A stretch of DNA of 61,009 nt, the filler included, from Stramenopiles sp. TOSAG23-6 (lineage: Eukaryota), in NCBI GenBank assembly GCA_900128565.1. It is 14 parts of 14 records of this genome, joined end to end, with 100 filler letters (N's around TTAATTAATTAA, not from the genome) between each part and the next. Parts side by side here need not be neighbours in the genome. Positions count along the whole stretch, not along the records: positions 35,009 to 39,266 come from LT637213.1; 13 more parts are not named here. One strand, written 5' to 3'. Below, piece by piece: positions 28,663 through 57,253 of this stretch. The notes under the pieces are model-generated. The model had not been told where the DNA came from, searched no databases, and saw nothing but the letters and a program-made list of their open reading frames with translations. The position numbers were made by a program, and so were the translations under genes. Within the stretch, counting starts at the first letter, position 1. Every line of letters starts with the position of its first letter.

Positions 28663-30459
28663 ATGGAAAATTGCAGACCTGTAGATAAGAGGATATCTTG
28701 TTGCAGTAATGAAGTAAAACCAAAAATTGGTAATCGGAGACGGAAGCTTCAGCAAGTTGATGGTGTTGGTCCCGAGCCAAATTCAAAAAGACCGAGGTAT
28801 CTAGAAAAGAATAATTCAAATTTAGCCACAAAAAATGCCCCATTGAGTACATTTCCTAATGGAATGATACCAGGTAAGATCAAATTACAACATGCAAGTG
28901 ATGTAGTTTCATTAGAAAAACCTTTTGCCCCGTTACGAGTTATTGATAGCAAAGACGATGTCACTTGTACGTCTGATACTTTGAACCCTCTACAGCATTG
29001 TTCCGAGTTTTCAAATAAGATAGCTATAGAAGTAACAGAGAAAGCAGTAGGATTAAAAAATGAAAAAACTTTATTGTGTAAGAAAAATCAATTGGATTCG
29101 AGTGAGGAAACTGGGTCGGAAGAAGAATTACGCGAACTCAGTTCAAACTTGATTTATTCGATAAATGGTGATACAAAAACAAGCAATACAACTTCAAGTG
29201 CTGTAGCGCCTAGAGATTTTGAATTCCGGCCGATAATAACAAATATCACTATTCCAACAAACGCCAAGACATTGAACAATGAAGTTGATGATTCAGAACA
29301 ACAAAATATTGTTGGGGTTCATAAGTTCAAACACGATGATCTAGATGAAATTTTACCTGGTTACGCTAAGGTATCCAAGTCGAAGGAAATATTCTACCAA
29401 CCTGATTTTAATTACATGCACAGGCATCCTGAATTAGAGGTTGTTATGCGCGCCATACTTATTGATTGGATGATGTAGGTTTTCAAAATTGAATTTCAAA
29501 TTTATTTATTTTTTAGTATGAAATTCCATACCTAACAATTTTTTCTACAATGTTTTTTTTTCACGATACATGGAGGTTTGTCATGAATACGGTTTAAAAA
29601 GAGTCACTCTCCAAAGAGCAATTAATTATACTGATCGCTATCTTTCAATATGCGAAGGTTTAGAAAAAGTACAGTTACAATTGCTCGGTGTTACATCGTT
29701 GTTCATAGCTTCTAAATTTGATGAAATTTACCCTCCAAGTGTACAAGATTTTGCAGTAACTACCGATGGTGCTTGTTCTAGAGATACTATTAGAGCTTTC
29801 GAAGGCAGGATCATTTCAGTTCTGAAGTGGCGATTAGTTCCTGTGACGTGTAATTGTTGGATCTCATATTATGTGCAGCGTCTTGCACATCTTCAAATTG
29901 CGTATAGAGCACAAAAAAAATCTAGCGCTAGTGTTTTGGTAACAAGGGAGTGGGATATCGACCGAGAAACGCCTCCACCATTGTATGGCTCTATTGATGG
30001 TGCTGGTGCCCCAGATTGTACACCTGCAGATGATGGACAAAAACGTGCAAAGCGTCGCTCATTTTCTGGTGTTTCTTCAGAAATGAATGATAAGAATCCC
30101 TCAAATAGTAAAGATATAAAAAATGTAGCCCAAATGCCACGTTTATTTGATCATAATGATGATAAAAATATATGCTCAGAAGCAACTGTGAAGAGCAACT
30201 TTAACGAAAAAAATGAAAATGATGTCAACAAAAAAAGATGTAACAATTTGCCAATTTCGAAACGTTCATCTCATTTCATGCATCGTATCAAAGACATTGA
30301 TACTGAAAATGAAACGGATAAGGTGCACATTGGAAATGCATGCTCTGCTTGCTTTCCACAAGATGCTGTCTTTCCCGAGGCTTTGTTTGAGAGAGCAACA
30401 GATTTAGTCGATCTTTGCGTCTTAGATTCTGTCGGTTTGACACATAGGAGAAGTCACAT
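28663..30459 (+). CDS. cyclin (E/A-like box); exons 28663-29474 and 29572-30459, 3' partial
   Basis: spliced MRAILIDWMMEVCHEYGL..AINYTDRYLS..LQLLGVTSLFIASKFDEIYPP. Confidence 0.92.
29475..29571 (+). mobile_element. family intron GT...CAT (97 nt)
   Basis: atg at|GTAGGT...ATACCTAAC...CACGATACAT|g gag restores the cyclin box. Confidence 0.85.
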
Positions 30460-32088: not shown

Positions 32089-34908
32089 TTACAATTTTCC
32101 TTTATTTTTCATGGTAACTACTGTATTCCATTCATCTGTACCTGGACATAATCTATGGTAACCTATTGAGGCTGTTGACGTACTTACATCAGAGTGACAC
32201 ATACCTGCTTTTGGCATTTCCCCAAAAGGGCGAGGTATTTCTCCATGTAATACATCAACAATATCTCGTGCCAAATTCATTCCAATTGCTGCTTCACTCG
32301 CTCTTCGAGACTTGCGTTGTCCCTTACGGCGAATCGCCCATTTGTATAATAAATTTCGGTTGAATGGCATAGGTGCAAGTAATCCTATAGTATCCTTTAT
32401 CAAGGCTGACTTAATTCGCTTATCCAAATCATTTTCAATACCAAATGATGGTGAGGCATTCACTTCAAGTAACCATGGTCGAAGTGAAGAATCAATAATT
32501 ATATCATAACCATACACTTCGAAACAATTTGGTTGGTGTTTGATTAAATCATCAGCACAAACTAGTGACTTTAAAATCAATATATGTATATTTTTCTGTA
32601 ACTTTTGTGTATCAATATTTAATTTTTCTAGGCGTTGTAAGAGGAAACTATATGAAAGTTTACTTCCTCCTACTTCTGAGGATGGTGCAGTCATAAGAGG
32701 TGTACATGATATTGTGCTACGGTTTTGATAAAAGCTTTCAGTATTTTTCGATTCTTTTGTCCTTATCTCCGGTTTTTGTTGTACCGATGAATTTGTAAGA
32801 TGCATTCGAAGATCTTTGAGGTAATCCCTATTTATTGGTTCCTCAGAGTCGTCTGGATCTTCGTTACCAATTTTATACTTGACCGTTGACATTCTCGCAA
32901 AGCCTTCTGTGTAGATAAAAGCCTCTAGGGGTTGGAATGATGTAACAAGTACATATAATCTCAGATCGAATTTGTATCCATCAATCAGTAATGGTTCATC
33001 AATATATTGCTGTACCACATGTATTTTGGAAAAATATTTCAAAATATTTTTTGTTAGGTACAAACTTTCGTACGAAAAAAAAATCATACAAAAAAAAACA
33101 TACAGCTGCCTCGGAATAGCGTAGTGTTGGACTATCTGTAATTCTAATTCCTCTTCCACGACTCATCAGTGCGGGCTTGACAATCCAAAGATTTTGTCTT
33201 GTAACATTTACACTGCTAGCGTTTGAACGTTTATCGTCCATCACATGTTGTGAATGGATTAATTGATCCTTTCGCTCAAAAAATGCTTTTGTAAATGCGT
33301 TATATTCTGTGGGTAAAATAAATGTGGGTGGCTGTATCGAAAAAGTAGATAATACACCCCCCATTTTCCAATATCTCGCAAGTGTTTTACACAATAAATC
33401 TTTTCTTGTCAGGCAACGAGCACCAACAAAGCGATGAACACGTTGCCAAGGCAAAAGTTGATCAAATGCAAGACGTGGTTCCTGGAAACACCACAAGATA
33501 TTCCAAGCCATCCGAGAACTATACGGTGTGCTCAAAGAAGTCATTGATTTAGCAGACATACTTTTGTAAGTATTGTATGTCTTAGTGTCATCTTTAGGGT
33601 CGGTCTTGAATTTAAACTCACGAGTAGACTCATCTGGAAGCTCCCGCATTCCTAGTGCATTAAACTGCTCATGTACTAGACTATATACTTCAGATTTTCG
33701 TTTCGATACAACAAACCATAGTTGTTGATTACCCAACTTTTTCGATAAATTCATCATTTTATTATTGTAATGGTATCTATTATGCTTACTTTCGTCGTTT
33801 GTCGTTTTATTTAGATTATGCAAAAACTTTACACTACTCAGAGATTCTTCGCCATTATCTTTGGAGTAAAATTCATTATATCCACCGCTAACTCGAATAC
33901 TACAAAATTTATTGTAACTTTTCAAAGAGGATTCGCTTGCCCATGGCTTATACGTATTCTCTATACTATTCCATATCTTTAATAATTCCCTTTCAGCACT
34001 TTCGCTATGCCGTCGACTAGTCTGTTTATTCTGGCCTTGTTTTAAATTTTTCATCAATAATGAGGGGCGGAGCAACTCGATTTCATTAGGCCAAAGTTTT
34101 GAAAGTGGAATAATGTAATTGTCACTATCATAATCTATTTTATCTTTCTGTGTATCATTCTTGACGTTTTTAGTGAATAAAATATCTTTGCTGATTATCA
34201 TGCGTTTTGGTGGTAACTTATCAAAATTTGTCACACGTTTTATCGCATTTTCGTCATTAGAACCTACTACATTCCCTATTGTCACTTGATTACTTATACC
34301 ATCATTTTCATCTAGAATGAAAGATCCAGAAGGTGCGAAATTTGCGCCTCGCTTATCATCAGTATTCAATGTACTTACAGCATGCAATTTATCCTTACTA
34401 TCGCTTTGGTTCACCTCAATTGAATGAGGTTCATGTAGAAATTGTTCTTCATTCTTATTTATTTCACAACATTCATCATCTTCAAGGTTACCCTCTTCAT
34501 TCTTATTTATTTCACCACATTCATCATCTTCAAGGTTACCCTCCGGAGTCCAACCATCGTACCAATCATCAACTTCAGATTCTTCTTTGTCGCAGAATTC
34601 AATATTTGTTTGATCTAATTCTATGATAGGATCTTTTTGTACACTTGAGCTATCATTTATATGTTTATCGAGTTCAACTACTGTATTATTATTCGTACTA
34701 TTTGATTCATCCAATTCTATCATAGGATTATTTTGTGCATTTATATTTTCATGATGCTCAATTACTGTATTATTATTCGAGCTATTTGATTCATCTGATT
34801 CAATGATGGGATTATTTTGTGCATTTATATTTTTATGATGCTCAATTACTATCTTATTATTCGAGCTATTTGATTCATCTGATTCAATGATGGGATTATT
34901 TTGTGCAT
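32089..34908 (-). CDS. tubulin-tyrosine ligase-like (TTLL) polyglutamylase; exons <34908-33104 and 33018-32089
   Basis: LTRKDLL, WIVKPALMSRGRGI, VVQQYIDEPLLIDGYKFDLRLYVLVTS, MHLTNSSVQ, CFEVYGYDII, PWLLEVNASPS. Confidence 0.93.
33019..33103 (-). mobile_element. family intron GT...CAT (85 nt)
   Basis: gca gct|GTATGT...AAAATACAT|gtg gta cag gives YSEAAVVQQYI. Confidence 0.88.
34660..34908. repeat. 84-bp coding tandem repeat in TTLL N-terminus
   Basis: GGATTATTTTGTGCAT recurs at 34725, 34809 and 34893. Confidence 0.8.
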
Positions 34909-35052: not shown

Positions 35053-36924
35053 TTACAAATCTAGGTGATCTACATCCTGTACATGTATCATTACATTTGA
35101 AAACAGGGCATCCTGCAACCCTTCTGATAATTCGTTCTCAAAAATATAGAGATGTTCTACTTTCAAATCCCAAGGATAATCTTTAAATTCACCATCAATT
35201 TGATTATGCCTTAAATTCAGATGTTCAATTTCGTGAGAAAAAAATCCAGCGAAACTTTCCAATTTATTATGAGACAAATTCACGAGTTCGTAAGATTTTA
35301 TTGGCAATCCATGCACCGTCAGCATATTAAGTTCATAATAGTTAACTGAATCGCTGCAAATAATGTTATCCAATTTAGGCAGTGTCGGAAATCCAACAAA
35401 ATTCTTCATGTGCCCACGGGTTATTTTAAAAGTATCTAGTTTGTTAAGCAAATTAGGCAAACCAATGAAACTTGAAATTTGTGAATTTTGTATTTCAAGC
35501 GAAGTAAGATGTTCCATTTGTTCTGGAAATCCGACTAAACTTTTAATCAAGGAACCATCAATTCTCAATGTTTGCAGATGTTGTAATCCTGAAAGTAGAG
35601 AAAGTTCACGAAGCCTTTTTCGGGGTAAGCACATATCGTCAAATTCATATAGACCACCATCAGCACCAAAATATTTACCACCAAAATCCTTAATTAGTTT
35701 CGCAACCTTTTTCGATTTCTTGCCAATTGCAAGACCCATATCTTTCAAGAAATCTTCCTCACTTGATTCAAGTAAGGGTTGAAGATGTCTGAAGAGAGGG
35801 CATATTCCACCTTCAAAATGTGGATCATCTGCAGCTTTCTCTGAAAATCTCTTGAGCAATACTTTTTTAGACATCACCTCGAGAAGAACCGACGACGCCC
35901 TCGAACTTATAAGATAATCACACATATGAAATAATGTTTTAGAGTCAAATTCCCAAATGAAACTATTGAACAGATCCCCATGTATCTCTTCTTTCGTACT
36001 TAATAAATAAGCATGTTCAATCATGCTTGCTCCAAAACNATGAAAGGACAACGCTTGTTCCTTTAATTTTATCAGGATGTNACGTACATCATCGAATTCC
36101 GGATACCTTTCATGACATACATCACTTTCATATAAATAGTATTGCGCGANTTCCACNGAGATAAAAGGTTGTGCATTTTCTAGTAACCATTTTGCATTTT
36201 CCAGATAACGATCTGTATCATCCAGACCTGCATCNTGTAAAAACAATTTCGCCTTGTCATCATTACCTTTTTGATGTGATAATTTGACCAATTTTTCATT
36301 AACACAACGTGTTCCAATATTATTCTCGAGGTATTTTTCAGGAGGTAGCTGATGCGGATAAACTTTTCTCAAAATAGCCTCAGCGGCAGGCTTAAAAAGT
36401 GTCCCCCTTTTATCATCAAAAATATGGAACAATCTACTGACACTTTCATCATTGAAGCAAGAAAGCAATATTCTTCTGATATTCACCATACCGAAGAAGT
36501 CAGAGGCATTTAGTAAGTTTAAACATGTCGAAAAATTGCCTTTTGAAGAAAGTAACTGTTTTACCGCTTCGACTGATTCCTTCTCCATCTTTTCTTTTAT
36601 CTCAAATAAAAATTGAATTGTCTCAGACGTTTGTGGTACTGGAATATCCTGTGAACAGTCAAATTCACCGAGTTCAGATAGTTCAGTTACATCCCATGAT
36701 ACCACTACTCGCTTTTCGTCAGAACATAGGAATGTAACTTTATCATTTTCTGACTCATGTTTTTGTCTTTTGCTGGCGCGAAAAGTACTCTCAGTCCCAG
36801 ATACATTATCCGCCTCCCCTCGCCAAGAAGATTGATCAGCTCCTCGCGAGGAATGTATTTGGGAGTAAATGATGGTTGCTGTAAGTAATAGTAGCAACTT
36901 CATATTTCGTTTTTTTCCTTGCAT
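35053..36924 (-). CDS. signal-peptide protein with Skp1/BTB-like domain and C-terminal LRRs
   Basis: MKLLLLLTATIIY; VTFLCSDEKRVVVS..LNLLNASDFFGM; LQHLQTLRID, LTSLEIQNSQI, VNLSHNKL, LNLRHNQI. Confidence 0.75.
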   Translation of the reverse strand: MQGKKRNMKLLLLLTATIIYSQIHSSRGADQSSWRGEADNVSGTESTFRASKRQKHESENDKVTFLCSDEKRVVVSWDVTELSELGEFDCSQDIPVPQTSETIQFLFEIKEKMEKESVEAVKQLLSSKGNFSTCLNLLNASDFFGMVNIRRILLSCFNDESVSRLFHIFDDKRGTLFKPAAEAILRKVYPHQLPPEKYLENNIGTRCVNEKLVKLSHQKGNDDKAKLFLXDAGLDDTDRYLENAKWLLENAQPFIXVEXAQYYLYESDVCHERYPEFDDVRXILIKLKEQALSFHXFGASMIEHAYLLSTKEEIHGDLFNSFIWEFDSKTLFHMCDYLISSRASSVLLEVMSKKVLLKRFSEKAADDPHFEGGICPLFRHLQPLLESSEEDFLKDMGLAIGKKSKKVAKLIKDFGGKYFGADGGLYEFDDMCLPRKRLRELSLLSGLQHLQTLRIDGSLIKSLVGFPEQMEHLTSLEIQNSQISSFIGLPNLLNKLDTFKITRGHMKNFVGFPTLPKLDNIICSDSVNYYELNMLTVHGLPIKSYELVNLSHNKLESFAGFFSHEIEHLNLRHNQIDGEFKDYPWDLKVEHLYIFENELSEGLQDALFSNVMIHVQDVDHLDL

Positions 36925-36982
36925 AGAACTACTAAGAGGGTAGGTAGACCGTCGGCGTTGCTAAATTTTTTTTAAAATGACG

Positions 36983-37001
36983 CTGACTCTCGCTCACTCG
37001 T
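36983..37001. promoter_or_regulatory. second copy of candidate upstream motif
   Basis: CTGACTCTCGCTCACTCGT. Confidence 0.35.
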
Positions 37002-37208
37002 AATTACGATTACCCGGTACCAACATTTTTTGGAGCGCATCAAGCGTTGAATCATGGTACATAGAAAATGCCACAATGTCATTATCTTTTTAATACTGTT
37101 TGTTTGGGTTGAACTACACATTGAATATTTCTTTTTATATTTCATTTTATTTTCTATACAGTTTGATTCTCTAGCAAGCTACAAAAAAAAAAAACTAACT
37201 CCATCAGA

Positions 37209-37478
37209 TTAAAACCAACGCATCATCCTGCTTAATATACTATTCGACGTATTTACAGTTTCCCTTGTTGCATCACACTCGACTTTTGCACATTCTAAAG
37301 ATTCTCTCTGCTCTTTAAGTTCCTGCAAAACATATTGAGCTGTATCAGTTGTACTTTTTACAGTATTCATCATTTCGTTCAAACGATTCTGTTGTTCTAA
37401 TAGTTTCTCTTTATTCGCCGATAACCGCTTATCATTTCTACTTGTATTGCTGTTGCTTTCATGTTTTCTAGGTGTCAT
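37209..37478 (-). CDS. small SNARE-motif coiled-coil protein without TM
   Basis: TTDTAQYVLQELKEQRESL..VNTSNSILSRM resembles a Q-SNARE heptad. Confidence 0.55.
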   Translation of the reverse strand: MTPRKHESNSNTSRNDKRLSANKEKLLEQQNRLNEMMNTVKSTTDTAQYVLQELKEQRESLECAKVECDATRETVNTSNSILSRMMRWF

Positions 37479-37765
37479 TCTTTAGTTGGAAGACATAAAG
37501 CACCCTTTTTTTGATTCCAGATTCTTCACTATTTTTGCCTTGTCTCATGAGTCATATTCCTCAGTAACTACTGGAAAAAACCTCAGGTAACCAGGTTCAA
37601 CAACACGATTTTTTTTTGTTTTTTTGATGTTTCTGGCCATCAATTTAAATTAAATTTTAATCAATCACACAATGTCATTCGTTCGTTTGTTGCACATGTG
37701 TGTCAATCCACTTTACAAGTACTAACTTTGAATTGTATTCTTTATAGACTTATTACTCCTTTAAA

Positions 37766-39199
37766 ATGCAACACTTTCTAACTTTCATTGTTTACGCCTC
37801 CATCATTCAAGGAACATTTTCATGCACTAATTATATGGTTACCAGAGGTGCATCAAATGATAATAGTACCATTGTGGCGTACAATTCTGATGGGTTTTCT
37901 CTATTTGGGTATCTTAAACACTTGCCAGCACAAGAATATGTCCCAGGAACTTTACGTGATGTGTATGACTTTACAAGTGGCAAATTTTTGGGTTCAATTC
38001 CAGAAGTATCGGCTACGTATAATGTGGTTGGTAACACAAATTCGGAAGGCCTTTCGATAGCAGAAACAACTTTTGATGGAATCGAAAAACTTGCAGAACC
38101 ATTTCCTGGATCCATACTTGACTATTATTCTTTAATGTGGATCACTCTTCAACGTACAAAAACTGCTCGTGAAGCAATCGCGACTATGGACATTTTAACT
38201 AGTAAATATGGATATGCGTCGACCGGAGAGTCATTTTCAATAGCAGATACGAAAGAAGTTTGGATCATGGAAATGATTGGTCGTGGGTTACATGAAAAAG
38301 GTACTGTTTGGGTGGCTAGAAAAATTCCTAATGGCGCCATCTCCGGCCATGCAAATCAGGCACGTATAGAATCCTTTCCTCTCAATTCCACAGATACTCT
38401 TTATTCTTCTGATATTTTTGAATTTTCTAAAAGGAACAATCTCACTGCACAAAATCTACCCAATTCAGAATTTAACTTTGCTCAAACATGTATGCTTTAT
38501 TTTTTTTTGGTATGAATTTTTTTTTCATACGAAATTTTGTACCTAACATTTTTTTTTTGAAATATTTTTTCAGAATACATTTGACCCTATCACCTCAATT
38601 GGTGCACGCGCATGTGACCTTAGGGTATGGAATTTTTTTCGTTTAGCTCTAGGCAAACAAAAAGGCAGAAAATTTGCAGATAAATATCTCGAATATGTGA
38701 AAGGTTACAATTTAAGTAGACGAATGCCTCTATGTATGTNGTATTTTTTTTTTAACAAAAAAATCGAATTTATTTTTCGTACGAAAATTTGTACCTAACA
38801 AATTTAAGTTTTTTTTTTTTGAAATATTTTTCAAAAATACATACGTACAAGTTGGTAATAATAAAGTGAGTGTCAATGATACGATGTGGGCGATGAGAGA
38901 TCGATATCAAAACACGTGGTTTGATCAAAGTGGTCGTGATAAGCCCGACATTAGTGCAGGGCCATTCCATTCCCTAGTAAGAACAAGACCTTTAGCATTT
39001 GAATTGGGACAAAAAAAATATTCATTCGAAAGGAATGTATGTTTTATTTTTTTTTTTTTTGTATGAATTTATTTTTTATAGTAAATTTTGTACCTAACAA
39101 ATTTTAGGGTTTTTTTTTTGAAATATTTTTCCAAAATACATGTTGGTTATCAAGGAACTTTTTTCAACTTTGTTGCCAATAGTCGTGGTCATTTTAAAT
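37766..39199 (+). CDS. peptidase C69 (dipeptidase/secernin); exons 37766-38489, 38581-38733, 38843-39036, 39142-39199, 3' partial
   Basis: signal peptide then catalytic C (SCTNYMVT), ETTFDG, ALQR-like ITLQRTKTAREAI, GESFSIAD, HANQARI; spliced FAQTFDP..LRVWNFF, RMPLYV, FERNVGYQGTFFNFVA. Confidence 0.9.
38490..38580 (+). mobile_element. family intron GT...CAT (91 nt)
   Basis: aca t|GTATGC...CAGAATACAT|tt gac; using the internal CAG would create TAA. Confidence 0.88.
38734..38842 (+). mobile_element. family intron GT...CAT (109 nt)
   Basis: cta t|GTATGT...AAAATACAT|ac gta, in frame. Confidence 0.88.
39037..39141 (+). mobile_element. family intron GT...CAT (105 nt)
   Basis: agg aat|GTATGT...AAAATACAT|gtt ggt, in frame. 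Confidence 0.88.
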
Positions 39200-39266
39200 G
39201 TATGTTTTATGTTTTTTCAAATTCGATTTTTTTTTCGTACGAAATTTCGTACCTAACGATTTTTTT
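39200..39266 (+). mobile_element. family intron, truncated
   Basis: aaa t|GTATGTTTT...TTCGTACGAAATTTCGTACCTAACG. Confidence 0.8.
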
Positions 39267-39553
39267 NNNNNNNNNNNNNNNNNNNNNNNNNNNNNNNNNN
39301 NNNNNNNNNNTTAATTAATTAANNNNNNNNNNNNNNNNNNNNNNNNNNNNNNNNNNNNNNNNNNNNTTTTTGCATTATCAATACATTCTCGAATTTTTTT
39401 GTGTCACTCAGATGCTAGTCGTTACCCGGTAATTTGCCTGGCATGCATCAATCTGACCGCGTGCCGCCGCAGCGACAACTGAAACACACAAACTTGTGCG
39501 AGCGTCTTCTTTTCGTCTTCTCCAAAGCACACATCAAGAAAGTCATAAACAAA

Positions 39554-40078
39554 ATGGTGGAAATTCTAGGAAAGAAAGCTGACCCAAAGAAGGGATTAAA
39601 AATTTTCAAGACCAAATGTTCCCAGTGCCACGTTGCTGATCATGTAAGTTATTTTTGAAAATATTTTCATTGGTTGAAATTGTTTTTATGTTTTCCATCT
39701 TCTGACCCTCTCCATGTTGTCAACTGGCTACTTCGATATCCAGTTCATTTGGGATGAATTTTCGTGGAACACCCTTGCATATTATATCCCATAAAAGCTA
39801 ACTTTGTCATATACTTATATTTCTCCAAATTACAGGCAGGTGTAAATAAGCAGGGACCTAACCTTCACGGACTTATTGGCCGCCACTCTGGTTCTGTCGA
39901 TGGTTTCTCTTATTCCAAGGCTAACAAAGACTCTGGAGTAACGTGGGATCACAAGACCTTATTTGACTACCTCAAAGCACCAAAGAAGTTTATGCCAGGA
40001 ACTAAGATGGTTTTTGCTGGACTTAAGAAAGCTAGTGATCGTCGTAACTTAATCGCATACCTTGACTCACAAAAATAA
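39554..40078 (+). CDS. CYC: cytochrome c; exons 39554-39643 and 39836-40078, canonical GT-AG intron (copies at +4350 and +8700)
   Basis: CSQCH heme motif, [35 protein letters not shown]...CTAAC...TTACAG. Confidence 0.97.
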
Positions 40079-40303
40079 ATTGCTGAAGTGGGTTACGTTT
40101 TATATCTGTCTGTTACCCCTTCTTGTATACTTGGTGGGTCAATACAGATACAATATCAATAACAGTTAATGTAAGCAAAATAATATTTTTTCTAGTTTTA
40201 TATAAGAGCATTATTCTCAAAAATAAACGTCGTTCTAGAAATTTATAAGGATTTTGGATTTGTATATCCAAATTTGGAAATCTTGAACGTTTGAGAAAGA
40301 ACT

Positions 40304-41262
40304 TCATTGAAGTATGAATCTATTCCATCCACCACCAACCAAAACCTTAAGCCTCCCTGTATGACGCAAAACACGTAATATTTCTTTACCCATTCCGCGT
40401 CCTGAGTTGTTAAAGGGAGCATCCGTGCGTATAAGATCTTTCGCCACGAAAAAATACTGTTTTTCTGTTTCCTGTATTTCAGAATTTTTCTGTTCCATAA
40501 AATTTCTGTACAATTCTGATAACTTCCTGCTCATTTTGCGAGGATCTCGTTCTAGGAAATCATACTTGCGCTTAATGAGTTTGTTCAAATGTGCCACAGC
40601 CTCATTCACCTTTGAAAGCTTTACTCGGCCCCTGAGGCATTTTGGAACATCATCTAGTTCTGTTGTCGTCACAAAATTTATGACCTTTATACTTCTTGAA
40701 GGTTTATCAGGCAATACTTTATTACATTCCTGTGTATTACGGTTATTGCTTTGAGCTGGGTGGTGCAAGGTATTATAGTCGTTTTCCGTATCTATACCAC
40801 TATTTCCTACTTGACTATTAGAGTCGCTGTTTTGACGAGCACTCGGTAAAAATTTTGGCAAACTTTCGCGTATCTTAATGAGATACTCCTGTTGTTCTTT
40901 ACCATCCTCATAGACCCGTTGAAGTGTGGCGATGTTTTCTTTTTCTAATTTAATCTGTTCGTGAATGTTTTTTGTGCGTCGTTCGGCAGCACCAAGCGCA
41001 CCTGAGAGATGCTGCAATTGAATATGACTTGCTGACCCAACTTTAAGTTTCGCGATATATATATATGTATGAAAATTAAGTGTGTTGCATTTTTAAACTT
41101 TAGTGAATGCTATTGATATTAAATATTTTACTTACCATCTATATCGTGTACATCAGAAATCTCTCTCAGAGTTTCAAGGTGTTGCGTAAGTGAACTTACC
41201 AAAGTCTCAAACGACTTTGTTAGCGATGTGGTTTTTGCCTGTTGACTACGAACGCTTTCCAT
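40304..41262 (-). CDS. SKA1: kinetochore protein SKA1; exons 41262-41136 and 41040-40304, GT-AG intron (copies at +4350 and +8700)
   Basis: coiled coil plus FVTTTELDDVPKCLRGRVKLSKVNEAV..KYDFL..ILRVLRHTGRL microtubule-binding domain. Confidence 0.8.
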
Positions 41263-41733
41263 GTAGATTAACGATTGTGAAAGGGAAGCGTATATAAAGT
41301 GTGTGGTTGATGAACCCAATAATGTCTGGGAGGGTAGTGAAAAGACAGAAAGACTATCAAATAATTCAATACTATATATTCAATATTGTCGCTTTGTGTG
41401 GGAGTTCAAAAACAAAGAGAAATTGAAATTCAAGTTCAAAATGTTCAAAATTTATCTTGAATTTTTGAAGACACGACAACTCGAACTCAAAAAGGGAAAA
41501 AGCACGAAATCCTTTGGCTTTATTGGAGCCTTGAAGTTGAACTCTACATTGAAATTGCATAGCTTTAGTTAGTGCAAAGTAGAGGATACAAAAACACATA
41601 CTATTGCCATATTTTACTCACAATTATCTTGCTTCATAATTTTCGGGATAATTTTCTTCTATATATTCAGAGACAATGAGCCAGTGTTGACGTAGAAATG
41701 TTCATTTATTGTTGATGAAACTACAAATTAACT

Positions 41734-42264
41734 TTAAAGTTCAGCATGGGCAGACCCTGGTTCTCCTTCACAACTTTTAATATCATTTTCTTGTAGTTGA
41801 GTCCATTTTTGAGTATCAATTTCATATTCCCACATACCTGCTTCACCGCAAAGTTTCATTAGGCTGGTTCCTCCACGCCGGTGGTTTCCCCACATAATAG
41901 TTGTACCACCGAATATAATCATTTTGTTACCAACTACACTTGCACTATGGAAAGCACGATATGGAGGCCATGCTGCTCCAGGTTGCTTGATGATTTGTTT
42001 CCACTTCTTCGTTGCGATTTCATATTCATATAAATCTTTATTCAAGAGACCACCTGAATAGTCCCAAGTGGAAAATGAATCACGCCAGACATACCCTGGA
42101 GTACCACTATATCCTCCATACATAATCAGCTTCGTGTTACCTGATGTCACCACAGTTGTGTGACCAAAACGCCTAGAAGGTATTTCATTCTCTTCTCCAC
42201 TTGCAACGTGATAATATATAAGAATATAAGCAACAAGTAATGACTTCATTGTGATCTTTTTCAT
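41734..42264 (-). CDS. secreted/ER kelch-repeat protein (copies at +4350 and +8700)
   Basis: signal peptide, PSRRFGHT..YGG, PPYRAFHSASVVGNKMIIFGG, C-terminal HAEL. Confidence 0.8.
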   Translation of the reverse strand: MKKITMKSLLVAYILIYYHVASGEENEIPSRRFGHTTVVTSGNTKLIMYGGYSGTPGYVWRDSFSTWDYSGGLLNKDLYEYEIATKKWKQIIKQPGAAWPPYRAFHSASVVGNKMIIFGGTTIMWGNHRRGGTSLMKLCGEAGMWEYEIDTQKWTQLQENDIKSCEGEPGSAHAEL

Positions 42265-42480
42265 GTCTACAATTTGTTGAACAAATGAATGAATAATTGT
42301 CTCGTTCAAATCAAAACAGAAATGAGCGTGGGTTTACTAAAAACACGAAATCCTAGCGCGTCGCTCAGACACGAGGTAGCAAAAGTGATTATATTTTTGT
42401 GGTTGCCAACGCGGTCATTCGCGGAGTGTAAATCTCAACACAATTCCAATATTTGTTGAAATTGGGTGAAATTCCATATA

Positions 42481-43527
42481 ATGGGGACCATCAAGGCTGC
42501 CAATAGTGGCATACAGTGTGATAATTTCTGCGACAAAGCCATATCACCTGCTGTATTTTCGTTGACTTCCGCTGCTCAAACTATTCGTAGTGTCATTTTG
42601 AAGAATGGCGCTCTCGTGACGTCACCAAGCATCCGTACAGCTGTTGAGCATTGCCGCGCACTTCTTGAATCGTTTGATTCAGTCTCGACAAAAACTAAAT
42701 ATAAACGCGAACGTGATACGAGGCCGTTGTTTAAAAGTAGAAAGCGTTTATGTACTTCTACCAATATTGGTGTAGGTGGTCGCTCCAATGCCTCTGATAC
42801 TAGTCTGCTGTCACTTCCGAACGTTTTACTGATTCATTCTCTTACTTTTCTTTCCCCAAGAGAGCTTAGTGACATCGCAACAACATCTCGATTATTTTAT
42901 TCTCCAGATTTTCGCAATAGTTATAGTAGCGAATGTAGCAACGGTACGATTAATAAGGGAAAAAAACTCATTCAAGTTGCATGCGAAATTCGGGCCAAAG
43001 CTTGTTTGCCGGTCTTTTTACAGCCCTTACGCCGGACGCACACAAAAACAATTACAAAAACCGTAGTAATAAACTCTTCAGAGAGTTGGGGTGAATGGAT
43101 GTCCAATATTGAATTTATATCAATGATGCGAAAACGACAACACGGTTTAAATACTTTAACTTTAGACGGTGCGAGCGGAGTACATCGCTGTTCTATTATA
43201 GCCAAACCTAACGAAGTCTATACTTACGAAAGCAAAACAAATGAAGATGACAGTTCAGACGAGGATCCTGGCTTCGAAAAAAATACATTTTGCATAGCAA
43301 TGGAAAAAATTACTCAAGTTTCGATAGGTGGTTGTTTCCATACCGCATTAGCAGAGAGTGGTGCTGTATATACGTGGGGAGATGGCGATTATGGCAGACT
43401 TGGTCACGGTGATGAGGTTGATTCCATTGCCCCAAAGATAGTTATGCCACTTCACAATAAAAAAGTGATACGAATATCTGCTGGATTTGAATATACAATG
43501 GCGTTGACAGACAAAGGGGAAGTATAT
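42481..43527 (+). CDS. F-box plus RCC1-repeat protein, exon 1 (copies at +4350 and +8700)
   Basis: LLSLPNVLLIHSLTFLSPREL; HTALAESGAVYTWGDGDYGRLGHG. Confidence 0.8.
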
Positions 43528-43616
43528 GTATGTTTTATTTTTTTTCGAATTCCAATTTTGTTTTCGTACGAAATTTTGTACCTAACGATTTTTTTTTCAA
43601 ATATTTTTCCAAAATA
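43528..43616 (+). mobile_element. family intron, truncated (redundant copies 47878-47966, 52228-52316)
   Basis: gta tat|GTATGTTTTAT...TTCGTACGAAATTTTGTACCTAACG...CCAAAATA. Confidence 0.85.
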
Positions 43617-46600
43617 NNNNNNNNNNNNNNNNNNNNNNNNNNNNNNNNNNNNNNNNNNNNTTAATTAATTAANNNNNNNNNNNNNNNNNNNNNNNNNNNN
43701 NNNNNNNNNNNNNNNNTTTTTGCATTATCAATACATTCTCGAATTTTTTTGTGTCACTCAGATGCTAGTCGTTACCCGGTAATTTGCCTGGCATGCATCA
43801 ATCTGACCGCGTGCCGCCGCAGCGACAACTGAAACACACAAACTTGTGCGAGCGTCTTCTTTTCGTCTTCTCCAAAGCACACATCAAGAAAGTCATAAAC
43901 AAAATGGTGGAAATTCTAGGAAAGAAAGCTGACCCAAAGAAGGGATTAAAAATTTTCAAGACCAAATGTTCCCAGTGCCACGTTGCTGATCATGTAAGTT
44001 ATTTTTGAAAATATTTTCATTGGTTGAAATTGTTTTTATGTTTTCCATCTTCTGACCCTCTCCATGTTGTCAACTGGCTACTTCGATATCCAGTTCATTT
44101 GGGATGAATTTTCGTGGAACACCCTTGCATATTATATCCCATAAAAGCTAACTTTGTCATATACTTATATTTCTCCAAATTACAGGCAGGTGTAAATAAG
44201 CAGGGACCTAACCTTCACGGACTTATTGGCCGCCACTCTGGTTCTGTCGATGGTTTCTCTTATTCCAAGGCTAACAAAGACTCTGGAGTAACGTGGGATC
44301 ACAAGACCTTATTTGACTACCTCAAAGCACCAAAGAAGTTTATGCCAGGAACTAAGATGGTTTTTGCTGGACTTAAGAAAGCTAGTGATCGTCGTAACTT
44401 AATCGCATACCTTGACTCACAAAAATAAATTGCTGAAGTGGGTTACGTTTTATATCTGTCTGTTACCCCTTCTTGTATACTTGGTGGGTCAATACAGATA
44501 CAATATCAATAACAGTTAATGTAAGCAAAATAATATTTTTTCTAGTTTTATATAAGAGCATTATTCTCAAAAATAAACGTCGTTCTAGAAATTTATAAGG
44601 ATTTTGGATTTGTATATCCAAATTTGGAAATCTTGAACGTTTGAGAAAGAACTTCATTGAAGTATGAATCTATTCCATCCACCACCAACCAAAACCTTAA
44701 GCCTCCCTGTATGACGCAAAACACGTAATATTTCTTTACCCATTCCGCGTCCTGAGTTGTTAAAGGGAGCATCCGTGCGTATAAGATCTTTCGCCACGAA
44801 AAAATACTGTTTTTCTGTTTCCTGTATTTCAGAATTTTTCTGTTCCATAAAATTTCTGTACAATTCTGATAACTTCCTGCTCATTTTGCGAGGATCTCGT
44901 TCTAGGAAATCATACTTGCGCTTAATGAGTTTGTTCAAATGTGCCACAGCCTCATTCACCTTTGAAAGCTTTACTCGGCCCCTGAGGCATTTTGGAACAT
45001 CATCTAGTTCTGTTGTCGTCACAAAATTTATGACCTTTATACTTCTTGAAGGTTTATCAGGCAATACTTTATTACATTCCTGTGTATTACGGTTATTGCT
45101 TTGAGCTGGGTGGTGCAAGGTATTATAGTCGTTTTCCGTATCTATACCACTATTTCCTACTTGACTATTAGAGTCGCTGTTTTGACGAGCACTCGGTAAA
45201 AATTTTGGCAAACTTTCGCGTATCTTAATGAGATACTCCTGTTGTTCTTTACCATCCTCATAGACCCGTTGAAGTGTGGCGATGTTTTCTTTTTCTAATT
45301 TAATCTGTTCGTGAATGTTTTTTGTGCGTCGTTCGGCAGCACCAAGCGCACCTGAGAGATGCTGCAATTGAATATGACTTGCTGACCCAACTTTAAGTTT
45401 CGCGATATATATATATGTATGAAAATTAAGTGTGTTGCATTTTTAAACTTTAGTGAATGCTATTGATATTAAATATTTTACTTACCATCTATATCGTGTA
45501 CATCAGAAATCTCTCTCAGAGTTTCAAGGTGTTGCGTAAGTGAACTTACCAAAGTCTCAAACGACTTTGTTAGCGATGTGGTTTTTGCCTGTTGACTACG
45601 AACGCTTTCCATGTAGATTAACGATTGTGAAAGGGAAGCGTATATAAAGTGTGTGGTTGATGAACCCAATAATGTCTGGGAGGGTAGTGAAAAGACAGAA
45701 AGACTATCAAATAATTCAATACTATATATTCAATATTGTCGCTTTGTGTGGGAGTTCAAAAACAAAGAGAAATTGAAATTCAAGTTCAAAATGTTCAAAA
45801 TTTATCTTGAATTTTTGAAGACACGACAACTCGAACTCAAAAAGGGAAAAAGCACGAAATCCTTTGGCTTTATTGGAGCCTTGAAGTTGAACTCTACATT
45901 GAAATTGCATAGCTTTAGTTAGTGCAAAGTAGAGGATACAAAAACACATACTATTGCCATATTTTACTCACAATTATCTTGCTTCATAATTTTCGGGATA
46001 ATTTTCTTCTATATATTCAGAGACAATGAGCCAGTGTTGACGTAGAAATGTTCATTTATTGTTGATGAAACTACAAATTAACTTTAAAGTTCAGCATGGG
46101 CAGACCCTGGTTCTCCTTCACAACTTTTAATATCATTTTCTTGTAGTTGAGTCCATTTTTGAGTATCAATTTCATATTCCCACATACCTGCTTCACCGCA
46201 AAGTTTCATTAGGCTGGTTCCTCCACGCCGGTGGTTTCCCCACATAATAGTTGTACCACCGAATATAATCATTTTGTTACCAACTACACTTGCACTATGG
46301 AAAGCACGATATGGAGGCCATGCTGCTCCAGGTTGCTTGATGATTTGTTTCCACTTCTTCGTTGCGATTTCATATTCATATAAATCTTTATTCAAGAGAC
46401 CACCTGAATAGTCCCAAGTGGAAAATGAATCACGCCAGACATACCCTGGAGTACCACTATATCCTCCATACATAATCAGCTTCGTGTTACCTGATGTCAC
46501 CACAGTTGTGTGACCAAAACGCCTAGAAGGTATTTCATTCTCTTCTCCACTTGCAACGTGATAATATATAAGAATATAAGCAACAAGTAATGACTTCATT

Positions 46601-49600
46601 GTGATCTTTTTCATGTCTACAATTTGTTGAACAAATGAATGAATAATTGTCTCGTTCAAATCAAAACAGAAATGAGCGTGGGTTTACTAAAAACACGAAA
46701 TCCTAGCGCGTCGCTCAGACACGAGGTAGCAAAAGTGATTATATTTTTGTGGTTGCCAACGCGGTCATTCGCGGAGTGTAAATCTCAACACAATTCCAAT
46801 ATTTGTTGAAATTGGGTGAAATTCCATATAATGGGGACCATCAAGGCTGCCAATAGTGGCATACAGTGTGATAATTTCTGCGACAAAGCCATATCACCTG
46901 CTGTATTTTCGTTGACTTCCGCTGCTCAAACTATTCGTAGTGTCATTTTGAAGAATGGCGCTCTCGTGACGTCACCAAGCATCCGTACAGCTGTTGAGCA
47001 TTGCCGCGCACTTCTTGAATCGTTTGATTCAGTCTCGACAAAAACTAAATATAAACGCGAACGTGATACGAGGCCGTTGTTTAAAAGTAGAAAGCGTTTA
47101 TGTACTTCTACCAATATTGGTGTAGGTGGTCGCTCCAATGCCTCTGATACTAGTCTGCTGTCACTTCCGAACGTTTTACTGATTCATTCTCTTACTTTTC
47201 TTTCCCCAAGAGAGCTTAGTGACATCGCAACAACATCTCGATTATTTTATTCTCCAGATTTTCGCAATAGTTATAGTAGCGAATGTAGCAACGGTACGAT
47301 TAATAAGGGAAAAAAACTCATTCAAGTTGCATGCGAAATTCGGGCCAAAGCTTGTTTGCCGGTCTTTTTACAGCCCTTACGCCGGACGCACACAAAAACA
47401 ATTACAAAAACCGTAGTAATAAACTCTTCAGAGAGTTGGGGTGAATGGATGTCCAATATTGAATTTATATCAATGATGCGAAAACGACAACACGGTTTAA
47501 ATACTTTAACTTTAGACGGTGCGAGCGGAGTACATCGCTGTTCTATTATAGCCAAACCTAACGAAGTCTATACTTACGAAAGCAAAACAAATGAAGATGA
47601 CAGTTCAGACGAGGATCCTGGCTTCGAAAAAAATACATTTTGCATAGCAATGGAAAAAATTACTCAAGTTTCGATAGGTGGTTGTTTCCATACCGCATTA
47701 GCAGAGAGTGGTGCTGTATATACGTGGGGAGATGGCGATTATGGCAGACTTGGTCACGGTGATGAGGTTGATTCCATTGCCCCAAAGATAGTTATGCCAC
47801 TTCACAATAAAAAAGTGATACGAATATCTGCTGGATTTGAATATACAATGGCGTTGACAGACAAAGGGGAAGTATATGTATGTTTTATTTTTTTTCGAAT
47901 TCCAATTTTGTTTTCGTACGAAATTTTGTACCTAACGATTTTTTTTTCAAATATTTTTCCAAAATANNNNNNNNNNNNNNNNNNNNNNNNNNNNNNNNNN
48001 NNNNNNNNNNTTAATTAATTAANNNNNNNNNNNNNNNNNNNNNNNNNNNNNNNNNNNNNNNNNNNNTTTTTGCATTATCAATACATTCTCGAATTTTTTT
48101 GTGTCACTCAGATGCTAGTCGTTACCCGGTAATTTGCCTGGCATGCATCAATCTGACCGCGTGCCGCCGCAGCGACAACTGAAACACACAAACTTGTGCG
48201 AGCGTCTTCTTTTCGTCTTCTCCAAAGCACACATCAAGAAAGTCATAAACAAAATGGTGGAAATTCTAGGAAAGAAAGCTGACCCAAAGAAGGGATTAAA
48301 AATTTTCAAGACCAAATGTTCCCAGTGCCACGTTGCTGATCATGTAAGTTATTTTTGAAAATATTTTCATTGGTTGAAATTGTTTTTATGTTTTCCATCT
48401 TCTGACCCTCTCCATGTTGTCAACTGGCTACTTCGATATCCAGTTCATTTGGGATGAATTTTCGTGGAACACCCTTGCATATTATATCCCATAAAAGCTA
48501 ACTTTGTCATATACTTATATTTCTCCAAATTACAGGCAGGTGTAAATAAGCAGGGACCTAACCTTCACGGACTTATTGGCCGCCACTCTGGTTCTGTCGA
48601 TGGTTTCTCTTATTCCAAGGCTAACAAAGACTCTGGAGTAACGTGGGATCACAAGACCTTATTTGACTACCTCAAAGCACCAAAGAAGTTTATGCCAGGA
48701 ACTAAGATGGTTTTTGCTGGACTTAAGAAAGCTAGTGATCGTCGTAACTTAATCGCATACCTTGACTCACAAAAATAAATTGCTGAAGTGGGTTACGTTT
48801 TATATCTGTCTGTTACCCCTTCTTGTATACTTGGTGGGTCAATACAGATACAATATCAATAACAGTTAATGTAAGCAAAATAATATTTTTTCTAGTTTTA
48901 TATAAGAGCATTATTCTCAAAAATAAACGTCGTTCTAGAAATTTATAAGGATTTTGGATTTGTATATCCAAATTTGGAAATCTTGAACGTTTGAGAAAGA
49001 ACTTCATTGAAGTATGAATCTATTCCATCCACCACCAACCAAAACCTTAAGCCTCCCTGTATGACGCAAAACACGTAATATTTCTTTACCCATTCCGCGT
49101 CCTGAGTTGTTAAAGGGAGCATCCGTGCGTATAAGATCTTTCGCCACGAAAAAATACTGTTTTTCTGTTTCCTGTATTTCAGAATTTTTCTGTTCCATAA
49201 AATTTCTGTACAATTCTGATAACTTCCTGCTCATTTTGCGAGGATCTCGTTCTAGGAAATCATACTTGCGCTTAATGAGTTTGTTCAAATGTGCCACAGC
49301 CTCATTCACCTTTGAAAGCTTTACTCGGCCCCTGAGGCATTTTGGAACATCATCTAGTTCTGTTGTCGTCACAAAATTTATGACCTTTATACTTCTTGAA
49401 GGTTTATCAGGCAATACTTTATTACATTCCTGTGTATTACGGTTATTGCTTTGAGCTGGGTGGTGCAAGGTATTATAGTCGTTTTCCGTATCTATACCAC
49501 TATTTCCTACTTGACTATTAGAGTCGCTGTTTTGACGAGCACTCGGTAAAAATTTTGGCAAACTTTCGCGTATCTTAATGAGATACTCCTGTTGTTCTTT

Positions 49601-52416
49601 ACCATCCTCATAGACCCGTTGAAGTGTGGCGATGTTTTCTTTTTCTAATTTAATCTGTTCGTGAATGTTTTTTGTGCGTCGTTCGGCAGCACCAAGCGCA
49701 CCTGAGAGATGCTGCAATTGAATATGACTTGCTGACCCAACTTTAAGTTTCGCGATATATATATATGTATGAAAATTAAGTGTGTTGCATTTTTAAACTT
49801 TAGTGAATGCTATTGATATTAAATATTTTACTTACCATCTATATCGTGTACATCAGAAATCTCTCTCAGAGTTTCAAGGTGTTGCGTAAGTGAACTTACC
49901 AAAGTCTCAAACGACTTTGTTAGCGATGTGGTTTTTGCCTGTTGACTACGAACGCTTTCCATGTAGATTAACGATTGTGAAAGGGAAGCGTATATAAAGT
50001 GTGTGGTTGATGAACCCAATAATGTCTGGGAGGGTAGTGAAAAGACAGAAAGACTATCAAATAATTCAATACTATATATTCAATATTGTCGCTTTGTGTG
50101 GGAGTTCAAAAACAAAGAGAAATTGAAATTCAAGTTCAAAATGTTCAAAATTTATCTTGAATTTTTGAAGACACGACAACTCGAACTCAAAAAGGGAAAA
50201 AGCACGAAATCCTTTGGCTTTATTGGAGCCTTGAAGTTGAACTCTACATTGAAATTGCATAGCTTTAGTTAGTGCAAAGTAGAGGATACAAAAACACATA
50301 CTATTGCCATATTTTACTCACAATTATCTTGCTTCATAATTTTCGGGATAATTTTCTTCTATATATTCAGAGACAATGAGCCAGTGTTGACGTAGAAATG
50401 TTCATTTATTGTTGATGAAACTACAAATTAACTTTAAAGTTCAGCATGGGCAGACCCTGGTTCTCCTTCACAACTTTTAATATCATTTTCTTGTAGTTGA
50501 GTCCATTTTTGAGTATCAATTTCATATTCCCACATACCTGCTTCACCGCAAAGTTTCATTAGGCTGGTTCCTCCACGCCGGTGGTTTCCCCACATAATAG
50601 TTGTACCACCGAATATAATCATTTTGTTACCAACTACACTTGCACTATGGAAAGCACGATATGGAGGCCATGCTGCTCCAGGTTGCTTGATGATTTGTTT
50701 CCACTTCTTCGTTGCGATTTCATATTCATATAAATCTTTATTCAAGAGACCACCTGAATAGTCCCAAGTGGAAAATGAATCACGCCAGACATACCCTGGA
50801 GTACCACTATATCCTCCATACATAATCAGCTTCGTGTTACCTGATGTCACCACAGTTGTGTGACCAAAACGCCTAGAAGGTATTTCATTCTCTTCTCCAC
50901 TTGCAACGTGATAATATATAAGAATATAAGCAACAAGTAATGACTTCATTGTGATCTTTTTCATGTCTACAATTTGTTGAACAAATGAATGAATAATTGT
51001 CTCGTTCAAATCAAAACAGAAATGAGCGTGGGTTTACTAAAAACACGAAATCCTAGCGCGTCGCTCAGACACGAGGTAGCAAAAGTGATTATATTTTTGT
51101 GGTTGCCAACGCGGTCATTCGCGGAGTGTAAATCTCAACACAATTCCAATATTTGTTGAAATTGGGTGAAATTCCATATAATGGGGACCATCAAGGCTGC
51201 CAATAGTGGCATACAGTGTGATAATTTCTGCGACAAAGCCATATCACCTGCTGTATTTTCGTTGACTTCCGCTGCTCAAACTATTCGTAGTGTCATTTTG
51301 AAGAATGGCGCTCTCGTGACGTCACCAAGCATCCGTACAGCTGTTGAGCATTGCCGCGCACTTCTTGAATCGTTTGATTCAGTCTCGACAAAAACTAAAT
51401 ATAAACGCGAACGTGATACGAGGCCGTTGTTTAAAAGTAGAAAGCGTTTATGTACTTCTACCAATATTGGTGTAGGTGGTCGCTCCAATGCCTCTGATAC
51501 TAGTCTGCTGTCACTTCCGAACGTTTTACTGATTCATTCTCTTACTTTTCTTTCCCCAAGAGAGCTTAGTGACATCGCAACAACATCTCGATTATTTTAT
51601 TCTCCAGATTTTCGCAATAGTTATAGTAGCGAATGTAGCAACGGTACGATTAATAAGGGAAAAAAACTCATTCAAGTTGCATGCGAAATTCGGGCCAAAG
51701 CTTGTTTGCCGGTCTTTTTACAGCCCTTACGCCGGACGCACACAAAAACAATTACAAAAACCGTAGTAATAAACTCTTCAGAGAGTTGGGGTGAATGGAT
51801 GTCCAATATTGAATTTATATCAATGATGCGAAAACGACAACACGGTTTAAATACTTTAACTTTAGACGGTGCGAGCGGAGTACATCGCTGTTCTATTATA
51901 GCCAAACCTAACGAAGTCTATACTTACGAAAGCAAAACAAATGAAGATGACAGTTCAGACGAGGATCCTGGCTTCGAAAAAAATACATTTTGCATAGCAA
52001 TGGAAAAAATTACTCAAGTTTCGATAGGTGGTTGTTTCCATACCGCATTAGCAGAGAGTGGTGCTGTATATACGTGGGGAGATGGCGATTATGGCAGACT
52101 TGGTCACGGTGATGAGGTTGATTCCATTGCCCCAAAGATAGTTATGCCACTTCACAATAAAAAAGTGATACGAATATCTGCTGGATTTGAATATACAATG
52201 GCGTTGACAGACAAAGGGGAAGTATATGTATGTTTTATTTTTTTTCGAATTCCAATTTTGTTTTCGTACGAAATTTTGTACCTAACGATTTTTTTTTCAA
52301 ATATTTTTCCAAAATANNNNNNNNNNNNNNNNNNNNNNNNNNNNNNNNNNNNNNNNNNNNTTAATTAATTAANNNNNNNNNNNNNNNNNNNNNNNNNNNN
52401 NNNNNNNNNNNNNNNN

Positions 52417-57093: not shown

Positions 57094-57253
57094 AGTCATC
57101 AAAAAATTTCGATTGATGATTAGATTTGAGATTTTGATTTGTCTTCTTCTTTCTTTCTCTTTCTTTCAGACTTATTTTACTAACACACACACAACAATAA
57201 TATTGATTATTATATTTACATTGTACGAAAATATAAATAGTTCAATAAGAGTA

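Follow-up and report, generated by a model that had tools for sequence, protein, structure and literature searches.

Introners, transposons resembling miniature inverted-repeat transposable elements (MITEs) that create spliceosomal introns in Micromonas, Aureococcus, dinoflagellates and others (PMC11282704, PMC12130899), are the nearest described counterpart of a short repeat family that interrupts genes in a 61,009-base stretch of DNA from Stramenopiles sp. TOSAG23-6 (assembly GCA_900128565.1; hereafter the window). Like introners, the family is a near-identical, short, multi-copy element at unrelated gene positions, in sense orientation, with a terminal inverted repeat and a short direct repeat (PMC11282704); it likewise brings splice signals with it, and its removal would take out the element plus one copy of the repeat (PMC11282704, PMC12130899). 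The introns made by introners, however, are bounded by GT/GC-AG, one site often being supplied by target duplication, whereas 13 of the 15 complete copies here end in YAT. On the evidence of the sequence, we think it fairly probable that the family is a miniature transposon of the introner kind, and that splicing removes its sense insertions as GT-AT introns. A large introner survey starts from annotated introns and drops families with unfamiliar ends unless these are RNA-supported (PMC12130899), and such a family in an unannotated assembly would therefore be missed. Our literature search found no published description of a GT-AT introner family; supplementary files, which could list one, lay outside that search.

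Three further systems share some of these features. Fritillaria borealis has transposon-derived non-GT-AG introns that are handled by the major spliceosome, with AT 3' ends in its AG-AT class (PMC11282704), but its 5' ends are non-GT (AG-AC, AG-AT) and diverse, whereas here the donor is GTATGT and only the last base deviates. Amoebophrya is, like the likely source of our DNA, a marine protist, with inverted repeats at its intron ends, direct repeats of 3-5 nt and transposon-like spread, yet its terminal dinucleotides are inconsistent and its genes GC-rich (54-58%) (PMC7789003), in contrast to the uniform ends and AT-rich element seen here. Rare GT-AT introns are on record in animals, namely a U2-type intron in DGCR2 and seven U12-type cases; GT-AT splicing is therefore chemically possible, and both spliceosomes can ligate after AU (PMC1557818). 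Those introns have the same terminal dinucleotides as ours but are isolated singles, whereas here a repeated mobile family dominates a genome region.

The window joins 14 contigs of 4,246-4,283 bp each, arranged in order of length, its 61,009 bases including joins of the form N44-TTAATTAATTAA-N44 (e.g. 4284-4383). Three contigs of 4250 bp each (39367-43616, 43717-47966 and 48067-52316) are letter-for-letter identical; counts over the raw window take their genes and their element copy three times, and counts of distinct copies collapse them. The original prediction had put the family at about 32 copies. A profile hidden Markov model built from seven complete copies gave 46 nhmmer hits, 36 of them at E<=0.01 and representing 34 distinct copies, while the 11-mer core TTGTACCTAAC, with at most one mismatch, has 34 matches where 1.18 would be expected, the highest count among 100 shuffles being 5. 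The profile hits span 4.1% of the non-N bases in the 61 kb, and copies occupy unrelated positions in at least 12 genes. The unit is about 85-110 nt long, with tandem and composite forms reaching 770 nt. The sense-strand consensus reads, in short form, AT/GTATGTTTTATTTT...TTTCGTACGAAATTTTGTACCTAAC...T-run...GAAATATTTTTCCAAAATAC-AT/ and, in detail, AT/GTATGTTTTATTTTTTTT-(C)AAATTCGAATTTTTTTT-CGTACGAAATTTTGTACCTAAC-(AAATTTTAG or GA)-T10-13-GAAATATTTTTCCAAAATAC-AT/. Full-length copies had been described as always in sense, and all 17 copies adjoining an open frame of at least 100 aa do lie on the same strand as that frame.

The case for removal is made copy by copy. Fifteen complete copies were examined, with the cut running from the G of GT(A/T/G)NG(T/C) through the T of the terminal YAT; those outside the dipeptidase gene treated below are as follows.

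14083-14178, plus strand: family intron in an HMG-box gene; 96 nt, GT..CCAT; 887-aa model with 0 stops.
14302-14396, plus strand: family intron, the exception to YAT; 95 nt, 3' end ATAC/AAAAG, in frame only as GT..AC.
26595-26689, plus strand: diverged family intron in a kinase-like gene; GTGCGT...CTAAG...GTAT, with a 5' flank ending in A.
26857-26958, plus strand: family intron in the same kinase-like gene; 102 nt, GTTTGT...ATACAT.
29475-29571, plus strand: diverged family intron in a cyclin gene; GTAGGT...ATACCTAAC...GATACAT; 573-aa model with 0 stops.
33019-33103, minus strand: family intron in a TTL-family gene; 85 nt, 5' flank GCT.
53151-53239, minus strand: family intron between the MIP-T3-like and EF-hand parts of one gene; 89 nt, GT..GCAT.
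58457-59226, plus strand: composite multi-unit family intron in a low-complexity protein gene; 770 nt, GTACGT...AAAACAT.
59469-59570, plus strand: near-consensus family intron; 102 nt, best nhmmer hit (E 9e-22).
60374-60550, plus strand: two-unit family intron; 177 nt, GTTTGT...ATACAT.
60634-60787, plus strand: diverged family intron; 154 nt (1 mod 3), GTATAT...GCTGAC...ATACAT, frame open only with these ends.
836-946, minus strand: diverged family member in an AP2-domain gene; ends ATACAG, canonical GT-AG at the homologous position.

The frame is open across 13 of the 15 copies when they are cut as GT..AT, across one as GT..AC and across one as GT..AG. Frame restoration, which the original prediction had reported for 15 of 18 complete copies, thus stands with a lower count, whereas its statement that no copy ends in AG does not: copy 836-946 ends in CAG, and a tandem copy ends in TGTAG at 26455. 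After removal, whole-gene models contain 0 stops over 870 (four introns), 887, 573 and 207 aa, against 11-41 stops in the best frame of the same genes left unspliced. The nearest AGs are damaging, as had been predicted, in that use of the first AG beyond the AT would throw 10 of the 13 copies out of frame and, in the other three, delete 3-8 residues in frame. The 770-nt composite leaves 0 stops as a single intron, and 2 if split into 58457-58968 and 59056-59226. Domain profiles are informative at two junctions. Cyclin_N (Pfam) is matched at positions 7-39 and 39-126 on the two sides of 29475-29571, in agreement with the predicted junction IDWM/MEVC, which the excised translation contains. The excised TTL translation likewise contains the predicted SEAA/VVQQYI, but the profile support is looser, with 9 Pfam profile positions unmatched between the two frames. 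The predicted EF-hand string DQN/KSNRISFEE is present in its own excised translation, named Pfam support being that for the cyclin and TTL genes.

The finest resolution comes from a C69 dipeptidase gene, in which the four copies reported earlier comprise three complete introns and a fourth cut by the contig end.

37748-38489, plus strand: exon 1, open frame; relatives in Pfam PF03577, best 62% identity.
38490-38580, plus strand: family intron 1; 91 nt, GTATGC...ATACAT; FAQT/FDP gap-free against homologues P0001 and P0002.
38581-38733, 38843-39036 and 39142-39199, plus strand: later exons, between family introns.
38734-38842, plus strand: family intron 2; 109 nt, GT..AT; junction RMPL/YVQ.
39037-39141, plus strand: family intron 3; 105 nt, GT..AT; in phase and stop-rich; ERN/VGYQ, exactly 35 codons out.
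39200-39266, plus strand: 5' part of family intron 4, cut at the contig end.

When homologues are aligned by tblastn, all three predicted junctions (FAQT/FDP, RMPL/YVQ and ERN/VGYQ) are gap-free. The GT..AT model has a mean score of 1179 against four homologues, with 0 stops, compared with 768 and 15 stops for the unspliced gene; the strongest G[TC]-AG alternatives reach 1168, 1163.5 and 1149, and lose residues or, in the third, keep a stop. The internal AG of intron 1 (TTTCAG, 38567-38573) breaks the frame if used, and an AG 9 nt downstream of intron 2 would drop 3 residues that the homologues retain. For each intron, all 961 pairs of boundaries obtained by moving either end by up to 15 nt were scored, and the top pairs remove equal length; the GT..AT set shares first place in introns 2 and 3, and falls at most 1 point short of it in intron 1. 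Together these results support the view that the elements would have to go exactly for the genes to encode conserved proteins. For the GT-AT splicing class first proposed, the need for exact removal, the GT..AT borders and the poorer fit of AG alternatives are supported, and removal in RNA by the spliceosome is what we infer from them.

Where the cut falls is a separate question, as the repeated AT leaves its position ambiguous within any single copy. Over the 13 frame-restoring copies, GT..AT fits 13, TG..CA 11 and AT..AC 7, and GT..AT is the sole terminal pair common to all. It is quite unlikely, in our view, that a spliceosome cuts instead at other termini blurred by the repeated AT, whether AT..AC, as in the known AT-AC classes, or TG..CA. 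Such cuts would often give the same product, the mRNA being identical with both cuts shifted by -2 in 9 of the 13 copies and by -1 in 11 of them; AT precedes GT in 10 of the 15 copies, and AT-AC introns are an established class (PMC1557818). Beyond the lower fit of both pairs, however, individual copies resist such a shift. The TTL-gene copy has GCT before its GT, and AT..AC is therefore impossible there. Position -1 is A in two copies; in one of these, 26595-26689, the 5' flank ending in A therefore excludes TG..CA. Diverged copies keep the terminal AT, whereas the two bases before it vary (AC, CC, GC, GT, AT). An AT-AC donor would read ATGTAT, at odds with both the U2-type and the U12-type consensus, and the branch motif, 32-44 nt from the end, lies too far away for a U12-type intron. 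U12-type introns have the donor RTATCCTT and the branch TCCTTAAC about 10-20 nt from the 3' end; the donor here is GTATGTTT.

By the donor and branch consensus that is standard for the major spliceosome, GTATGT and CTAAC had been identified as U2-type signals, which the wider sample bears out. Every one of the 15 copies has a GT donor, GTATGT in 8, conforming to the GTRNGT type, and a CTAAC, CTAAG or CTGAC motif resembling TACCTAAC, broadly of the CTRAY branch type, is found 32-44 nt before the 3' end, with a T-run after it. The 3' ends depart from the YAG of U2-type introns, being YAT in 13 copies, TAC in one and CAG in one. Donor, branch motif and T-run look U2-type in sequence, the last base excepted. 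As the diverged AP2-gene copy has AG at the same position, AT and AG therefore occupy the same slot. Nine of the 15 copies lack any AG beyond the branch motif, and in 4 of the rest the sole AG is some 10 nt beyond the branch A. Nested 'stwintron' splicing was considered and rejected, since many copies have no AG at all after the branch. GTATGT is also the consensus donor recognized by U1 in yeast. Judged from the donor alone, this match sets the family apart from Amoebophrya. In that lineage the U1 component (U1 small nuclear RNA, snRNA) was not found (PMC11282704).

In anatomy the element resembles a small transposon, a point that the original prediction had left aside. Its ends form an inverted repeat, ATGTAT(G)TTTT and AAAATACAT, of 6-10 AT-rich bp; AT stands at both ends in 10 of the 15 copies, a state in which a 2-bp duplication and insertion into A^T are indistinguishable without an empty site; and tandem or composite forms occur at 26280-26455, 58457-59226 and 60374-60550. 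On the strength of the inverted repeat, the AT direct repeat and the tandem and composite copies, we regard the family as a probable introner-type element. No autonomous copy or transposase was seen in the window. Thirteen DNA contigs of run X4 join a unit end ...ATACAT head-to-tail to an ATGTATG... start (joint 38580 to 39035); the genome must therefore have head-to-tail neighbors elsewhere. Mid-element, just 5' of the branch motif (e.g. 14121-14132), sits a perfect 12-nt palindrome, TTTCGTACGAAA. It persists in many copies, others having CATACGAAA or TATAAAAA in its place, and could be a binding site for transposase or another protein, or a small hairpin. Helitrons insert between A and T without duplication, and have 5' TC and 3' CTRR ends and a 3' hairpin. 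A Helitron-derived element was rejected here: an A^T site would suit one, but its ends would then read TG...CA, and the only palindrome (TTTCGTACGAAA) lies mid-element.

Inverted ends could also serve removal more directly. In structure-guided, spliceosome-independent excision, the paired ends would mark the cuts and an RNA ligase would join the exons. The minimum-energy fold pairs both element ends in 4 of 8 copies, and the inverted repeat itself suits such a route, as do the non-AG borders with their direct repeat, which euglenid and Amoebophrya elements share (PMC11282704, PMC7789003). A precedent is SOS splicing in C. elegans and human cells, by which inverted-end DNA transposons are excised from mRNA at non-GU-AG sites upon pairing of their repeats (PMC12779559). 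We nonetheless judge this explanation unlikely. Inverted-repeat pairing works either way round, whereas all 17 copies next to open frames are in sense; the repeat spans no more than 6-10 AT-rich bp, and folding energy departs from shuffles (z-score <=-2.7) in only 2 of 8 copies, with no general excess of stability; and diverged copies in which the ends do not pair still have GT, CTAAC and YAT. SOS splicing is, moreover, imprecise, with indels, and relies on long paired repeats without need of donor or branch motifs (PMC12779559), whereas here exact removal is required, 13 copies needing one exact length, the repeat is short and spliceosomal motifs are conserved. Nonconventional introns of euglenids, a second known example of such a route, differ in turn by stable end-to-end RNA pairing, variable borders and the lack of a U1-complementary donor; the two low z-scores and the uniform borders of the present family do not match them. 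Ribosomal bypassing, familiar from phage T4 and yeast mitochondria, was likewise rejected, the shared repeat being only 2 nt and splice motifs being needless for it.

Evidence from reads concerns one interval, contigs of public runs having been placed on 36236-39266 (DNA run X4; RNA runs X7, X8 and X11). In an independent 2024 seawater DNA run, contigs that span exon and element have the same depth (~6) as unique exons; the insertions are therefore no amplification artefact. That nothing is removed at all, and that these are dead gene copies or artefacts of assembly or amplification, is scarcely credible to us. The assembly is highly fragmented, with duplicate contigs, and RNA runs compared with 36236-39266 give no transcript evidence, but the flanking frames are open for hundreds of codons on both sides in unrelated housekeeping-type genes (cyclin, ETF-alpha, the APC3-neighboring TTL gene and C69), one uniform rule restores frames in 13 of the 15 copies, and the same insertions recur in a seawater metagenome sampled about nine years later.

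The same reads bear on excision from DNA, in the manner of ciliate internal eliminated sequences, with an expressed nucleus that lacks the elements. The insertions are indeed short, AT-rich and multi-copy, with a short direct repeat of which one copy would be left, and so resemble TA-bounded eliminated sequences. We hold this explanation very unlikely, however, as sense-only copies and splicing signals on one strand would be unexpected, and the genes are read in the standard code, with a 635-aa frame open under table 1 and cytochrome c stopping at TAA at its usual C-terminus. Single-cell-sized DNA runs and the independent metagenome both carry the interrupted form at exon depth, and among the 15 joints listed (203 further) repeat copy joins repeat copy, with no exon-exon DNA joint. 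The check for DNA-level excision suggested with the original prediction points toward the interrupted form, as regards joints for those listed. In DNA that is not from defined nuclei, the interrupted form and the exclusively sense orientation set the family apart from eliminated sequences of the ciliate type.

Several points weigh against splicing at GT-AT. Over 36236-39266, the RNA runs show no spliced junction. One contig of run X8 covers the unique C69 exon at 38167-38481 and ends 9 nt before the first donor, and runs X7 and X11 leave only traces on unique C69 exons. RNA libraries do hold the element with its flanks, in 109 (X7) and 112 (X8) partly fitting contigs, which could be unspliced RNA or DNA carry-over. 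Copy 38490-38580 contains a good TTTCAG 7 nt 5' of the required AT, and one would expect a standard spliceosome to choose that TTTCAG. Spliceosomes studied so far strongly disfavor U at the last intron position in the second step. Finally, copy 14302-14396 has ACAA where others have ACAT and requires GT..AC; if it is ended at 14398, where the consensus would place the end, every frame retains at least 16 stops. As an observation apart, poly(A) metatranscriptome contigs over 38480-39266 reach summed depths in the thousands on the element and 0-3 on unique exons, and the ratio of RNA to DNA over repeat bins is fairly flat (about 0.15-0.4), such that unspliced or excised intron RNA and DNA carry-over are not separable.

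Splicing of an introner-like element remains the explanation that we favor, and its steps may be sketched. The element would be a non-autonomous, MITE-like introner with a complete set of major-spliceosome signals on one strand only, namely GTATGT as donor, TACCTAAC as branch motif and 10-13 consecutive T. In coding exons, insertions would persist only in sense, because the transcript is then spliced. Splicing would take out the element together with one of the two AT copies, with the 5' cut directly before GTATGT and the exons ligated after the YAT 32-44 nt past the branch A, in the slot of YAG in other introns, which would make the 3' splice site AU rather than AG. We infer three things here, namely removal at the RNA level, the spliceosome as its agent and the branch site. 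More tentatively, the major spliceosome of this lineage may routinely ligate after YAU, in a mobile family of perhaps thousands of copies, bypassing the TTTCAG at 38567-38573. If so, the 3' site might be set by position after the branch, or by pairing of the ends, rather than by AG, a suggestion that we advance with equal reserve.

How far the family extends beyond the window is indicated from two sides. Fourteen of the 24 distinct contig ends sit within family copies; the repeat therefore fragments the assembly, and family copies account for its fragmentation. In the seawater DNA run, summed contig depth in repeat bins is 4,700-82,000, against about 6 in unique parts, a sum that does not equal copy number and is nevertheless a sign of very many copies. 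The earlier statements that GT-AT splicing occurs at large scale, and alongside only two ordinary introns, rest on this window, the repeat-bin depths and the 14 contig ends being supporting hints. A 22-mer of the element had no match in metagenome contigs or in viral contigs; a 16-mer matched at least 118 loci in public contigs, and among those listed none fits the element profile at E<=1e-3. Partial and tandem copies in the window include the following.

4384-4443, minus strand: 5' part of a copy in the ETF-alpha gene, cut at the contig start.
26280-26455, plus strand: two tandem units of the GTTTTCAT subfamily, the first ending ...CAATAC and abutting the second; the array ends TGTAG, with ATG downstream.
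43528-43616, plus strand: copy in an RCC1-repeat gene, cut at the contig end; identical at 47878-47966 and 52228-52316 (duplicate contigs).

Two loci show how the element varies. At 12990-13048 (plus strand), ATATGT stands in place of GTATGT, with a GT three bases upstream (cctGTAATATGT) and the 3' end lost at the contig end; a shifted donor may offset the G-to-A change. The Asn/Thr-rich low-complexity protein gene at 57068-60880 (plus strand; 870 aa) carries at least four family introns in 2.4 kb; a fifth, from 60881, is cut by the window end, and the 770-nt composite includes antisense-like fragments.

The window itself is eukaryotic and gene-dense, with a G+C content of about 35% and long frames that are open under the standard code. 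Pfam identifies genes for the C69 dipeptidase, cyclin, TTL-family ligase, kinesin, AP2-domain, HMG-box, ETF-alpha and SET-domain proteins, and further for CEP104, TRAPP, guanylate kinase, APC3, SKA1, Kelch, RCC1 and EF-hand/MIP-T3 proteins. The closest database proteins reach only 62% (C69 exon 1), 59% (ETF-alpha exon) and 53% (kinesin) identity, and the lineage is therefore poorly sampled; for three window queries (C69 exon 1, ETF-alpha exon and kinesin), no near-identical transcript-derived protein was returned. The haem motif of cytochrome c is CSQCH and not the single-cysteine form, which is that of Euglenozoa. A two-AP2-domain protein (716-2182, minus strand; Pfam E 2.9e-12) lies amid a flagellate-type set of genes (TTL, CEP104, MIP-T3 and kinesin), a hint to the lineage that is not decisive. 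DNA of the window is present in three small DNA runs of 2015, and in seawater metagenomes and metatranscriptomes of 2022-2025. An Rfam scan of the window gave 0 matches and thus offered no snRNA for inspection. Ordinary splicing is represented by a contrast case.

39644-39835, plus strand: ordinary GT-AG intron in the cytochrome c gene; GTAAGT...GCTAAC...TTACAG.

A candidate ordinary GTAAGT...TAG intron near the 5' end of the SKA1-like gene (40792-41135, minus strand) comes from a scan for canonical introns that is too noisy for counting them.

Nearly all spliceosomal introns end in AG, which is read directly in the catalytic center. If GT-AT splicing holds in this organism, a changed choice of 3' splice site would have let a transposon ending in AT colonize coding exons, and introners would be able to spread with an unorthodox splice site. 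The family would then offer a clean natural test of site choice in the second step, in that a perfect donor and branch are combined with an AU end, alongside ordinary GT-AG introns. More broadly, intron surveys and gene callers built on GT/GC-AG would count too few introns in such lineages and yield broken gene models, with at least 12 genes mis-called in this window.

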